64,000 bases of DNA from a virus (IMGVR_UViG_3300009671_000009:160467-224466), one strand, 5' to 3'; shown: positions 21,201 through 24,924, counted from the stretch's first letter. Made by a program: numbers and translations. Notes: generated by a model from the letters alone, not told the origin.

Positions 21201-24200
21201 GCATTCTTCTGCCTTCGGTATTTGTATACACCTCTGCACTTCTAAGGACTCCGCGGTCATCTTCAAACATTGTTTTAAATGTTTCTCGACCTTTGCGGTT
21301 CAAGATATCCTCTTCAAATAATGCTTGGTTTCTAGCTATCTCAAGAGGTGTTTTAGCTCCAGACTCAATCCACGAACTAACATCTTCCGTAAGCCTGGCA
21401 ACTCCTTTATCTAGATCGTCTAAGGCGACCTCAAACGACTTAGGTTGTCTTCCTTGCAACAATCCTCTTAGTTCTGGTGAACCAATAGAGCCTTGCTTCC
21501 ACGTACCAGGAGTAATAAAGTCATCACTCGTTAAACCGTATTTCGCAAACACTTTCTGTGCTTCGTCTGATCTGATAACATCCATGTACTCTTGTGAAGA
21601 TAACTGAATTGCTCCAATTGAAACACCTTTGGCAAGAGCAAATTCTGGAGCTACTGCTTTAGAAAGTTCGGTATAAGACTTCAACTCAGTTCGTGAAAGT
21701 ATGAACGGATTTAATCCTATACCTCTCCTGTGTGCAATATTTTGTAATTTATCTTCTAACTCTTTGACTGTGTATGGATAGTAATTTAACCACTGACGGA
21801 GATTTGGACGAGCAGCACTTTGCATGGCCCCAAATGGAGAAAAGTCTCTTTCTGTCATCATACCATAGAAGCCTCTGGATAGCTTTTCTGCCTTAACACC
21901 TTCTCCTGTCAATCTATTAATTATTTTTGCTTTGACTGGATCGTCTCCATATTTCTCTGTAGCCCATTCTTTGAACTCCATGAGAAATCTTCTTTGCTCA
22001 TGTAATTTAAGATCGTCTAGGCCTTTTGCTTGCCTGTTAAGTCTATCAGCTGCAAATTCAGGAACTAAAGCTCTTATATCAACTTCATGACGTCGTAAGA
22101 TATCGGCATCGTTACCTCTAACATTAAGACGAAATGCCTCTTCAAACGAATCTCTAGTTGATGCTCTCGAAGCTCCAGAGGCTTTTTCAAATATACCTCG
22201 GACTGCTCTACTAACTCTTCTTTGAGCTGCTTCCACATCAGGGGCACCAGATAAAGGAGCAAGATACTTGGCTACTGTACCTGCACGTCTGCCAAGAGTT
22301 TTAGTCAATTCATCGTATAGGTCAGTAAGTACGAACCCTTTACCTAAACGAAATTGATTGACTTTTGATTCTCCTCCTAATATTATATTCCCTGCGTCGG
22401 TCAGCATTGGGAATTCCATTACAACTGCATTTCGAGGAATTGCACCTGTCCTGGCTGCATTTAGTACACTTTCTAATGTACTTCTGTCACCGCCATGAAC
22501 ATAAAGATTTATTCTGTTGCCAGCTCTCGCTACATGTACACCAAGATTGCGATCTTCGTAAGACTTGATAATGCTTTCTAGAGCCTTACTCATTTTTCCC
22601 CTGTTAGTTTGTGATGTGGTTAATCCGTCAAACAAAGACGACACATAGTCGGGATATTCAAAAGCTCTTGATTGTCTCTTCGCAGCCGCAATAGAATCGG
22701 TGGCAATCTCCGCTGCTCTGGCCATGTCAATTTGCACCATTCTATTTTTAACGCTTTCTACTGGAACATTGATATTTTCTTTCAAGACTAAATCTGAATG
22801 TTGTAGGATATTTTGCAGCTTCTGGGCACGATAAAAAAATGGTGATTCCATGCCTGCAATTTGGTCAACGTGCGATTGAGTAAGATATCCTCTTTCCCGT
22901 AGATCAAACAGGGCTTCATTAAATAAAGTGTTTCTGGATACATCTGCCTCTAAAGATCCAGCCTTGACGCGACTGTCAAGATTACTTTTTAAGGCACCAG
23001 CAAATCCCTCTGATCTTATTGATATTCTATTGCCAAGAATTTCAACTGTTGGATCCCAGGCGCGGTTAACGACCTCAGTATCGACTGGGAATTCTTCTTT
23101 GAGTCTGCTATAGAAATTTTTAAACGCTAAGGTTTTTTCGTGCGGAGACAAATCAGACTGATCAGCAGCTTCAATAAATCTAGTTAAGGCTCCAGACTCT
23201 GCTGATATCCTACCATACATTGTACCAAGGTCTCGTTTTTCAGTAAATGAAAGTCTATTGTACTCATCAAGATCTCCACCAAAAGCCTTAACCATCCGTC
23301 TCATTGATGAGTAGCCTTTGCTGTCTACGCTACCCCACCTATGGATAGCTTGTCTGGCAAGATCTTCTAGGCCCTCTTGTCCAAGCACGGCACTCTCTGG
23401 ATTGATATATTGCAGAGCTCCTCCTTGGATCTTTTTTCTTACCTCATCAATACTTGATCCAGTTAAAAATGCAGATCTCCCTAAGTCTGTCGAATAGAAC
23501 TTAGCAATGAAGACATCATTATCTTGAAACATTCCTTCATAACGATAAACCGCTCTTCTGTTAAATACCCAGTTGTATACATTGCGTCCATCATCGTCTA
23601 TTGAAAAGTCTCTGCCTGTCCCTCTTACGCCTTGCATCGACATAAACATCTGACCAGGTTCCATAGGAGCCGTAGAATAGCGAAGCATGTTACGAACACC
23701 TGGTTTGATAGAAGGAGTAGAAACTACACCTTTGTCAAACATTCTAGCAATTGGGTCAAAAGCAAAGCCGAAGATTTGTTCTTGGGAAGCTATGTCAAAG
23801 GCACCCATGTGGGCTGAACCTTTAATACCCATAAGCCCCCTCATGGCATCCATGGTCAAAAGCCCTTCTTGGTTTGTGCGAAGAAATGTTCTTAGTTGAC
23901 CGCTTACTTCTCTTCCTATTTGTCTTCTAACTTTTCTGTTGGCTTGAGAGATGTCGGTAAAACCTCTCTCTTGCAAAGCCTTGTTAAGCAACATTCTGCG
24001 ATATAATATTGTCGGATCGTTATGCGTAATTCTGAATAGGTTGAGAACATCAATAGGATGATTTTGCTGACCATTGGCAATCCCTATCAATTCAGCCCAT
24101 TTCCCTTTGCCTCCTCCAGCATCTACAATCTTCTGCATTGCTGGGAAGTCGAATGCATCTGAGTTAAATCCAACCAGAGTAAATTGGCTTCCTAATAATC

Positions 24201-24924
24201 TGTGGGACTCAAAGAAATCTCTAACCTTGGTATGAACCTGATGTTCTGGAACACCGTGTCTAGTTATATTTGTAAGACCTCGCTCCATAAGATCATATTC
24301 CGCGTTGGTAAAATTAAGATTTCCTGTCGCTTTTTTGAGATTAAAATCGCTATGATATTTTACCATATTGGTAGCTGGATCAATTGTTCCTTCTTCGGCA
24401 TATCTCATAAAGCTGGCAATGGCAAAGCGCTCCTCTTTAGTGAGAGCAGCTCCAGATCTTGCTTTTGTTATTAACGATTTAAATCTTTCAGTCTTGATTT
24501 CATTTGGTGCCACAGCAATATTTAGCATGCCTTCTTGTCTTCCGAAGTTTGCGTATTTTGCCATGGCTATTTCAGTTGCATGGAAGAGATCGCTATCTAG
24601 TTTCAAACCTGTTGTTTCAAGGTCGAACATAAGAAAAGGATCCCTTCCAATTCTCTGTCTAAAATTCTGAAATGATTCAATCGTCTGCTGCGCATCAAAA
24701 TGACCCATACCTGGAGCACTTATATAACTCCAAGGAGCAGCATGTGGAATTGGATTAAGGGCTTTATTTGTCCAACTCTTCTGGGTATTGTCAATGCCAA
24801 ATCGCTCAGATCGTCCTGCGCCAGCATTAACATTTTTAAAACCTAATGATGAATAGAAATGCGAAGTATTATTAGAAACAACTTTGATTCCTGCATTTCT
24901 AAGCATCTCATCGTATTTGCCCAT
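18229..24924 (-). CDS. Single-chain two-barrel (beta+beta'-like) RNA polymerase with N-terminal DEDDh exonuclease; putative virion RNA polymerase (2231 aa)
   Basis: NADFDGD at 19690-19710, preceded by 'MRDP' and 'MKTRMPTSAR' (beta'-like). Beta-like motifs 'GAGLRIGPREIRSLKAKGA' (20584-20640) and 'VKVMHDTRKST' (K1257/K1264). DEDDh motifs 'FDLETTG', 'GFNSDAFD' and 'HMGAFD'. Confidence 0.85.
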   Translation of the reverse strand: MGKYDEMLRNAGIKVVSNNTSHFYSSLGFKNVNAGAGRSERFGIDNTQKSWTNKALNPIPHAAPWSYISAPGMGHFDAQQTIESFQNFRQRIGRDPFLMFDLETTGLKLDSDLFHATEIAMAKYANFGRQEGMLNIAVAPNEIKTERFKSLITKARSGAALTKEERFAIASFMRYAEEGTIDPATNMVKYHSDFNLKKATGNLNFTNAEYDLMERGLTNITRHGVPEHQVHTKVRDFFESHRLLGSQFTLVGFNSDAFDFPAMQKIVDAGGGKGKWAELIGIANGQQNHPIDVLNLFRITHNDPTILYRRMLLNKALQERGFTDISQANRKVRRQIGREVSGQLRTFLRTNQEGLLTMDAMRGLMGIKGSAHMGAFDIASQEQIFGFAFDPIARMFDKGVVSTPSIKPGVRNMLRYSTAPMEPGQMFMSMQGVRGTGRDFSIDDDGRNVYNWVFNRRAVYRYEGMFQDNDVFIAKFYSTDLGRSAFLTGSSIDEVRKKIQGGALQYINPESAVLGQEGLEDLARQAIHRWGSVDSKGYSSMRRMVKAFGGDLDEYNRLSFTEKRDLGTMYGRISAESGALTRFIEAADQSDLSPHEKTLAFKNFYSRLKEEFPVDTEVVNRAWDPTVEILGNRISIRSEGFAGALKSNLDSRVKAGSLEADVSRNTLFNEALFDLRERGYLTQSHVDQIAGMESPFFYRAQKLQNILQHSDLVLKENINVPVESVKNRMVQIDMARAAEIATDSIAAAKRQSRAFEYPDYVSSLFDGLTTSQTNRGKMSKALESIIKSYEDRNLGVHVARAGNRINLYVHGGDRSTLESVLNAARTGAIPRNAVVMEFPMLTDAGNIILGGESKVNQFRLGKGFVLTDLYDELTKTLGRRAGTVAKYLAPLSGAPDVEAAQRRVSRAVRGIFEKASGASRASTRDSFEEAFRLNVRGNDADILRRHEVDIRALVPEFAADRLNRQAKGLDDLKLHEQRRFLMEFKEWATEKYGDDPVKAKIINRLTGEGVKAEKLSRGFYGMMTERDFSPFGAMQSAARPNLRQWLNYYPYTVKELEDKLQNIAHRRGIGLNPFILSRTELKSYTELSKAVAPEFALAKGVSIGAIQLSSQEYMDVIRSDEAQKVFAKYGLTSDDFITPGTWKQGSIGSPELRGLLQGRQPKSFEVALDDLDKGVARLTEDVSSWIESGAKTPLEIARNQALFEEDILNRKGRETFKTMFEDDRGVLRSAEVYTNTEGRRMLRLNAEAIYEAEESVKVMHDTRKSTMSFLGAPDKSDAVSKAMHEIFGQDTHLIHLGNPKKYQDLSATLKGRLALLAEQYQNNPLKLEEIRKEMSSMFGATELVQLPGRTGLSFVVPDATQMLADKNLSLQPEAFESKMNSLMAKFGNDLSVVLPGGREVDKELVELRRMNINETFRFSNYLGSDRTVGAGLRIGPREIRSLKAKGAIIGADMDAILNYMTDEARDMPGLGKHRQAASEMSRAIGYLVDPSRMGELAQLDAGDFDKGFGEILGRSWFSRGQLEDTILDTEKGMFALKLPTEIAVDLGSARRAISTLPVARAPIGRDSQGRIFLENQNRALMNIFEDIKAVESFNTVDAAHGAFRTREEAIGAMKTHVKQYIDELGYNISSSGGAVMERAMKTRMPTSARLKAQNISANLEVAANLSGTMEIGEDFARELFEGADENIMRALRSDKGFYGIMMRDPNEWAGNFAIMNIRVKEGLQGRVARMSAVDAALANADFDGDQVAMLSPFSKRMLDMDNESFARMQMNLASVHRKQTEYNNRLANHLRYKYLNEQSIQAGTSWEKYLGNSLQDPNLFSGHSYVERVMNAHLSKTAAGPMYNLAQRYGDVGMAVFEGIDDPAERMRRIELLNAFTETTTEQVTLKGKRGGNPLSFEALDALKGSLKRGKGLVRDWGEAYASAISDEVALSWSGAGEVLSSLGVAEGDLINDTAMSRIKTTMADQMLQNIEQVRDTVDRVSPEYFGGAASKMFFSDTAYSRKRGGDLANMFSQYLAIDPNSEAYMKSFVPTDVVESFAKATSQGGQYAIAKEMFYDKLKHMHMNNLEDIAATMTRAGGAATVVADAVQDTMAETAANVVQEASLWKKIPKWAKIGAAIGAGAIVANTAARKEPKPEMLPNEVGYGTPVARVEMNSGVEAQVNGQIITAKAKNRKNIDVSTLSDAVQKQVKEGTVNIFQKDDTSTIDHNFAQNLLGQALNYGRVNQDPNSY

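Follow-up and report, generated by a model that had tools for sequence, protein, structure and literature searches.

In the record of an uncultured, contractile-tailed phage (224,466 bp, rated as 100% complete by CheckV), the final 64 kb (IMGVR_UViG_3300009671_000009:160467-224466) encode three giant tail-module proteins, and the middle one, P0001, is the subject of this analysis. The whole stretch of 64,000 nucleotides is referred to as the window; coordinates are counted from its first letter, and all coding features located below lie on its (-) strand. P0001 (18229..24924) is a single uninterrupted open reading frame (ORF) of 2,231 codons, giving a protein of 2,231 amino acids (aa). An AGGAG sequence at 24933-24937, 8 nt ahead of its ATG, coincides in part with the stop codon of the giant gene upstream, which has 2,516 codons. 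Judged from its sequence, P0001 is a single chain combining a predicted N-terminal DnaQ/TREX-type 3'-5' exonuclease with a C-terminal catalytic core signature of cellular RNA polymerases. A first-pass annotation of the same DNA had described a DEDDh 3'-5' exonuclease fused to the N-terminus of an RNA polymerase (RNAP).

The exonuclease domain covers residues ~90-400 (23725..24657) and contains the three motifs of DEDDh enzymes in sequence order, namely D-x-E in ExoI, N-x3-[FY]-D in ExoII and H-x4-D in ExoIII, the last of which is the mark of the DEDDh subclass. ExoI reads LMFDLETTG (residues 98-106, 24607..24633) with D101 and E103, ExoII reads VGFNSDAFDFP (residues 251-261, 24142..24174) with N254 and D259, and ExoIII reads AHMGAFDI (residues 371-378, 23791..23814) with H372 and D377. 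All three are intact in the 2,231-aa ORF and lie within 23780-24640, the interval to which the first-pass annotation had assigned them. Following ExoII, the segment IDVLNLFR (24031..24054) carries D292 and represents a strand of the 'xDTxxLxR' type. In the alignment with solved structures, ExoI is paired with the ExoI of 9mrd, ExoII with HNSRRFDWP and the D292 strand with CVDTLSLSR of the same entry, and ExoIII with CHYAEGDV of 9l8a. Furthermore, the motif blocks align column for column with two genuine PF00929 RNase_T proteins.

The conservation pattern is highly selective. Across 17 full-length giants sharing 16-72% identity, D101, E103, N254, D259, D292, H372 and D377 are invariant, and only M1, L161 and Y175 join them as invariant columns in the N-terminal 400 residues. 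The seven residues are exactly the DEDDh catalytic set plus the ExoII asparagine and the aspartate of the 'DT..L.R' strand. In addition, when the whole protein is compared in segments of 40 residues, conservation peaks at residues 81-120, where it equals that of the catalytic region of the polymerase. Between ExoI and ExoII, a helical insertion at residues ~141-245 (24190..24504; helices 68-166 of the structural model) has no counterpart in solved DEDDh enzymes. This larger of two insertions carries a conserved L-T-x-E-E-R...R-Y block at 24397-24444, which includes the invariant L161 and Y175 as well as T162, E164, E165 and R166, all four invariant among the four closest homologues.

These homologues were recovered from metagenomic databases. 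A word-indexed search returned four full-length homologues with 99-39% identity, and an exhaustive profile search of 1.84 billion representatives yielded 24 proteins at E<=1e-3. Most of the 24 are giants of 2,100-2,470 residues, and two are small ordinary Pfam RNase_T members (E=1.5e-13 and 1.3e-11). All family members are called 'hypothetical protein' or remain unnamed in the databases. A tblastn search with the N-terminus and the whole protein against 50,697 GenBank phages gave no match, and a pattern search of IMG/VR found no relative of the protein.

Searched as a profile of 15 rows (A3), the domain matched TREX1 homologues in the PDB (E=8.6e-10) in an alignment that includes ExoI, ExoII, the DT motif and ExoIII, and the same search also matched the PolC exonuclease and Cap18. 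Profile A3 includes two true RNase_T proteins (P0024 and P0028) and may be biased by them; 3/15 of its members match PF00929, two of these three being P0024 and P0028 themselves. A profile built from giants only (A2) matches the same TREX1-homologue chains at E=1e-6. Used as a single sequence, the window protein was matched by the PADLOC DEDDh model (E=8e-6) and weakly by phrog_192 of the PHROGs collection (E=3.5e-4). No exonuclease match was obtained in Pfam, NCBIfam or phmmer against the PDB, and PF00929 found nothing in the genome. Single-sequence searches of this kind fail because the two helical insertions stretch the domain to ~310 residues.

An initial AlphaFold run with 4 sequences and residues 1-480 was unusable, with a predicted local distance difference test (pLDDT) score of 48. 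In contrast, AlphaFold2 modelled residues 75-410 (336 residues) from alignment A3 with a pLDDT of 88.2 and a predicted template modelling score (pTM) of 0.86. All top Foldseek matches of this model in the PDB are DEDDh exonucleases at probability 1.0, among them RNase T, ExoI, a Cas-associated DnaQ domain, Orn, Pop2, 3'hExo and a TREX1 homologue. VIA-align superimposed 168-196 residues at 2.6-3.6 Å with Z scores of 14.0-15.8 on DEDDh enzymes including ExoI, TREX1/2, 3'hExo, the N-terminal exonuclease of DinG, ERI3, PolC, Cap18, Orn and Pol III epsilon; the ~130 model residues left unaligned are the two helical insertions. The domain thus has the common fold and the D-E-D-D plus histidine set of known DEDDh exonucleases (TREX1/TREX2, E. 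coli ExoI, Pol III epsilon, PolC, RNase T, 3'hExo), but it is only 12-21% identical to them, is longer by these extra residues, falls below detection by Pfam PF00929 and is embedded in a 2,231-aa virion-type protein. When the model was compared with BFVD, two long viral proteins (pieces or fragments of >1,000 aa), A0A7R7G2L5_1 and A0A8S5RKK9, outscored every small exonuclease (TMq 0.54-0.56; E=7e-9 and 3e-6). One of them is named 'YprB ribonuclease H-like domain-containing protein', and both entries may represent the N-terminal portions of UniProt giants related to P0001.

Altogether, the DnaQ/RNase T (DEDDh) identity first read from three motifs is borne out by the invariant H-x4-D set, by structural matches confined to DEDDh enzymes, by the predicted DEDD fold, by catalytic residues kept in every one of the 17 homologues and by the profile match to TREX1 homologues. 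The analysis confirms a real domain and not a chance set of motifs, and we regard its assignment to the DEDDh exonucleases as practically certain. The intact active-site residues and the predicted fold strongly suggest a catalytically competent, Mg2+-dependent 3'-5' exonuclease.

The polymerase signature lies in the C-terminal half of the same chain. A beta'-type region (19645..20052) comprises a switch-2-like segment, an R-D-P motif (R1703, P1705) and the catalytic barrel with the metal-binding loop NADFDGDQ (19687..19710; D1741, D1743, D1745). These five residues are invariant in the 17 homologues, including the complete DxDGD motif of the loop. Profile A2 matches bacterial beta' chains in the PDB at E=1.2e-8 over ~150 residues, from switch-2 through NRAPTLH to NADFDGDQ, and the Pfam match of P0001 to PF00623 is weak and the only one in the genome. 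A beta'-type catalytic barrel is hence established at the level of sequence comparison. For a larger core, the ESM Atlas provided a lead to viral RNA_pol_Rpb1_2 clusters at 0.86. Among ORFs of at least 250 aa in the 224-kb genome, no other D-x-D-[GAKSN]-D motif with an RNAP-like context was found. No second RNAP-like or YonO/gp99-like gene was found in the complete genome either; the corresponding PF05183 search was uninformative, as its control remained silent.

A second, beta-like barrel is probably present as well, which would make P0001 a single-chain two-barrel polymerase. Two candidate elements point in this direction. The first is the beta-subunit-like motif FSPFGAMQSAARPN (21802..21843), conserved as PFG...RPN..Q. 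The second is KVMHDTRKST (21127..21156), a possible lysine pair of a beta-type barrel with the pattern K1257-x6-K1264-S-T, in which K1257 and T1266 are invariant and K1264 nearly so in the family alignment A4. Profiles of residues 400-1000 and 1760-2231 matched no solved structure. Close to the C-terminus, the Gly/Ala-rich, moderately hydrophobic segment IPKWAKIGAAIGAGAIVANTAA (18535..18600) is retained both in the family and in gp146 of Bacillus phage 0305phi8-36, but stays below the strict hydropathy threshold for a transmembrane segment. With regard to the originally proposed fusion, the N-terminal exonuclease does share its chain with the beta'-type barrel and its NADFDGDQ loop, but the two modules are not adjacent, as ~600 residues without recognisable fold separate the exonuclease from the start of the putative core.

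As a next step, we looked at the genomic context of P0001. The major capsid protein of the virus shares 40-50% identity with its counterparts in Moorella phage MTATph1 and in Bacillus jumbo phages related to 0305phi8-36, and sheath, portal and terminase are likewise encoded in the window. Gene order is kept in nine loci, in the sequence giant A, giant B (the P0001 type), giant C, small genes and sheath initiator/PAAR. Giant A ranges from ~2,000 to 2,950 aa and giant C from 1,750 to 2,500 aa across these loci, and cell-wall hydrolase domains occur in giant C in 4/9 of them. The P0001 gene thereby occupies the middle position of the three giants, between tail chaperone-like and baseplate genes. 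The equivalent slots in phage 0305phi8-36 hold gp145, gp146 ('hypothetical tape measure protein') and gp147 (annotated as an endolysin), and according to the annotation of the 0305phi8-36 record, gp145 and gp146 are virion proteins identified by mass spectrometry. Giant A of the window is a homologue of gp145 (E=1e-121).

P0001 and gp146 (L004:38624-46237) share the gene slot, a C-terminal domain of ~70 residues (18247..18456; hhalign 94.7%, and 96.7% with E=4e-10 against the gp146 family) and an ExoI segment. Because this domain is missing from giants A and C, we rejected the view that all three giants share it as a module. In contrast to P0001, gp146 has no polymerase region: DxDGD occurs nowhere in gp146 and nine metagenomic relatives with identities down to 29%. 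However, all 10 sequences of this family retain Y-x-D-I-E-T-T-G (D1223/E1225), G-Q-N-V-x-x-A-D (N1441/D1446) and H-x4-D-V (H1685/D1690) as invariant motifs. Unlike in P0001, these exonuclease-like motifs lie in the middle of the protein (residues 1223-1690), with very large insertions between them. The ExoI segment and the helix preceding it are homologous to those of the P0001 family (hhalign E=5.6e-5, 66%), and a profile of the gp146 family against the PDB gave no match. If the DEDDh assignment holds for gp146, the exonuclease would be an older and more general feature of the giant B slot, to which the polymerase would have been added in the clade of P0001. Phage 0305phi8-36 encodes a separate YonO-like RNAP, gp99, of the kind for which we found no counterpart in the present genome.

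The neighbouring genes contain further features. In giant A (ORF 24937-32487, 2,516 aa), residues ~1664-1796 (~27100-27500) form a Cas4-like PD-(D/E)XK nuclease domain, with matches to phrog_1706 (E=1.4e-11) and the PADLOC Cas4 model (E=7e-7), and the region is conserved in gp145. With the Cas4-like domain in giant A and the DEDDh domain in giant B, adjacent giants of the tail module each carry a nuclease fold. Giant A also contains an intein (28684-29859, C877 to N1268) with the LAGLIDADG blocks GLYLAEGS and GMFDGDGH and matches to PF14528 (E=4.8e-12) and PF14890. Across the junction GN|C...HN|T, the flanking exteins line up with the gp145 sequence of 0305phi8-36, which runs on without interruption, and inteins are likewise present in giant A of two relatives. 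The third giant (12611-18217, 1,868 aa) falls in the gp147 slot and matches phrog_20474 'endolysin' at E=4e-177. Its homologues carry M23, glucosaminidase or Hydrolase_2 domains, and it is probably a tail hub with a cell-wall hydrolase. Finally, two tail-sheath paralogues (35797-37440 and 38064-39353; phrog_16991/279) compare with gp137/gp139 of 0305phi8-36.

Taken together, we favour the reading that P0001 is delivered by the virion as a polymerase and that its nuclease works on the 3' ends of DNA during entry, and we would put the probability of this reading at roughly 60%. The protein is probably a component of the tail or virion that enters the cell along with the DNA, since its tail slot is conserved in nine loci and its C-terminal domain is common to gp146, the presence of which in virions was verified by mass spectrometry. 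By analogy to known virion polymerases, we consider it likely that P0001 is a delivered polymerase, which would start phage transcription without the host enzyme as proposed for gp96 of phage P23-45 and shown for crAss-like gp66. The exonuclease would act on DNA 3' ends during genome entry and independently of RNA synthesis, with the ends of the incoming genome or host DNA as possible targets, and it may cooperate with the Cas4-like 5'-3' nuclease of the neighbouring giant A. A role independent of RNA synthesis is suggested because the polymerase-less gp146 family keeps DEDDh-like motifs; their distribution with and without a polymerase argues against obligatory transcript proofreading and favours a role in DNA entry. 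A preference for DNA is suggested by the nearest sequence relatives, which are DNA exonucleases, and by the Cas4-like nuclease in the adjacent giant. Taken as a separate question, a role on DNA ends rather than RNA is a tentative assignment, which we hold at somewhat less than even odds.

Several points weigh against this reading. The DEDDh assignment in the gp146 insert is no more than probable, and comes from the motifs and a 53-column profile match (66% probability). As to the substrate, the Z scores of RNase T, 3'hExo, ERI3 and Orn in the structural comparison differ by no more than one unit from those of ExoI and TREX, and with DNA- and RNA-specific DEDDh enzymes tied in this way, structure cannot decide between them. 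For the beta-type barrel, a profile of residues 980-1340 matched no beta/Rpb2 chain in the PDB, hhalign against E. coli RpoB gave nothing, nor did PF00562 on the genome, and the ESM Atlas returned no usable match. The label 'RNA polymerase' therefore rests on one barrel plus motifs, and the early description of the fusion partner as an RNA polymerase is qualified in this respect. Moreover, the family is known from metagenomes only. The apparent direct terminal repeat of the genome is only ~124 bp long, with its first 40 bases recurring at position 224,343 of the record; these 124 bp look like an assembly overlap and not like physical genome ends.

How the two modules might work together can be envisaged in several ways. 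One possibility is a delivered 'entry machine', in which the exonuclease either resects the incoming DNA into a single-stranded template for the polymerase or edits the RNA 3' end. Template preparation is conceivable because virion two-barrel RNAPs such as gp66 prefer single-stranded templates. Against it, the strand uncovered by a 3'-5' enzyme working on the end that enters would be the one read in the direction of the terminus. If the RNA 3' end is edited instead, P0001 would be the first two-barrel RNA polymerase to be equipped in cis with an extrinsic 3'-5' exonuclease of its own. Such direct cooperation is, in our estimation, rather doubtful.

Unlikely, in our view, is a nuclease directed at the transcript in cis, which would remove misincorporated or backtracked 3' nucleotides of the RNA, or trim and mature early transcripts. 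Coronavirus nsp14-ExoN, acting with its RNA-dependent RNA polymerase (RdRp), offers an analogue of such an extrinsic proofreader. Both modules occur on one chain in 17/17 homologues with equally strong conservation, and the model fits the RNA-specific enzymes RNase T, 3'hExo, ERI3 and Orn no worse than it fits DNA-specific ones. However, the modules are separated by the ~600 residues of unrecognised fold, the closest relatives by sequence are DNA exonucleases, and two-barrel RNAPs cut backtracked RNA in their own active site. Moreover, the DEDDh motif set is retained in the gp146 family, whose members have no polymerase motif. Of the roles considered in the first-pass annotation, transcript proofreading has thus lost ground.

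A further explanation sees the exonuclease as an entry-stage weapon or counter-defence factor that, together with the Cas4-like nuclease, destroys the host chromosome, plasmids, defence RNAs or DNAs, or oligonucleotide signals. Two nuclease folds of probably opposite polarity in adjacent delivered giants, kept with and without the polymerase, would suit this purpose, and the structural matches include the oligonucleotide-degrading Orn and Cap18, which is associated with the cyclic-oligonucleotide-based antiphage signalling system (CBASS). On the other hand, no similarity to known anti-defence proteins was found, the PADLOC matches being to the library's DEDDh and Cas4 fold models, and tethering to a giant tail protein would limit the reach of the enzyme. 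We judge this explanation to be quite improbable.

The two remaining explanations have very little to recommend them. P0001 could be a two-barrel DNA polymerase or primase similar to archaeal PolD, with the DEDDh domain as a classical proofreader: polymerase plus 3'-5' exonuclease is the canonical replicative arrangement, and the two-barrel core of PolD makes DNA and pairs with an exonuclease subunit. But the loop of P0001 has the RNAP consensus NADFDGDQ, its best matches are bacterial beta' chains including switch-2, and the gene lies in the tail module and not in a replication module, which makes this proposal most improbable. Equally remote is the retention of the exonuclease fold as a structural or nucleic-acid-binding module without catalysis, for although many giant virion proteins carry degenerate enzyme folds, here neither the five catalytic residues nor N254 and D292 vary even where overall identity is down to 16%, and they lie where the protein is most strongly conserved.

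With an RNA polymerase delivered by the virion, a phage can begin an infection without the host enzyme, and to our knowledge few unrelated solutions to this task exist (N4, phiKZ-like phages, crAss-like gp66 and P23-45 gp96). The P0001 family adds a putative cellular-type single-chain core that is encoded among the tail genes of jumbo myoviruses resembling 0305phi8-36 and is permanently fused to an intact exonuclease. We know of no two-barrel RNA polymerase that carries an exonuclease domain, and neither an exonuclease-RNAP fusion nor the P0001 family is described in the reviews and papers on jumbo-phage transcription that we consulted. If the nuclease serves the polymerase, by preparing the template or by editing the 3' end, this would represent a new principle for this class of polymerases. 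If it acts instead on DNA ends or host nucleic acids, these phages would bring finished nucleases into the cell by way of the tail. This trait appears to extend to the gp146 lineage, which lacks the polymerase, and the cultured phage 0305phi8-36 would make it testable.

Among known systems, the nearest functional precedent is gp96 of Thermus phage P23-45, the 5,002-aa tape measure protein of a siphovirus with an N-terminal DFDGD two-barrel RNAP (Chaban et al. 2024, PMC10770324). This protein is proposed to pass through the tail and transcribe the first phage genes, and the paper mentions no nuclease (PMC10770324). P0001 resembles gp96 as a giant tail-module protein with DFDGD, but its core is far closer to cellular beta'. 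Homology between the P0001 family and gp96 was rejected (hhalign against gp96 residues 1-1200, probability 0.3%); hence, P0001 may work like gp96 without belonging to its family. Another giant virion single-chain two-barrel RNAP is gp66 of the crAss-like phage phi14:2, which strongly prefers single-stranded over double-stranded DNA in vitro (bioRxiv 10.1101/2020.03.07.982082). It differs from P0001 in being a podovirus cargo protein of the QDE-1/YonO-like clade for which an exonuclease domain is not reported, and phmmer and profile searches against the PDB gave no sequence match between gp66 and P0001.

The combination of polymerase and exonuclease also has parallels outside the virion. In archaeal PolD (DP2 plus DP1), a two-barrel polymerase is likewise coupled to a 3'-5' exonuclease, but this partner is Mre11-like and PolD makes DNA. 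In coronaviruses, nsp14 is a DEDDh enzyme that acts on RNA and serves the right-hand RdRp nsp12. Unlike P0001, neither PolD nor the nsp12 and nsp14 pair consists of virion tail proteins. Closer to the phages considered here, jumbo phages of the AR9/PBS1 type have an RNAP beta-like subunit fused to an HD phosphohydrolase (Iyer et al. 2021, PMC7824862). This fusion is a precedent for a hydrolase on a phage two-barrel RNAP subunit, but differs from P0001 in the fold of the hydrolase, in the multisubunit, split organization of the RNAP and in the position of the gene outside the tail module.

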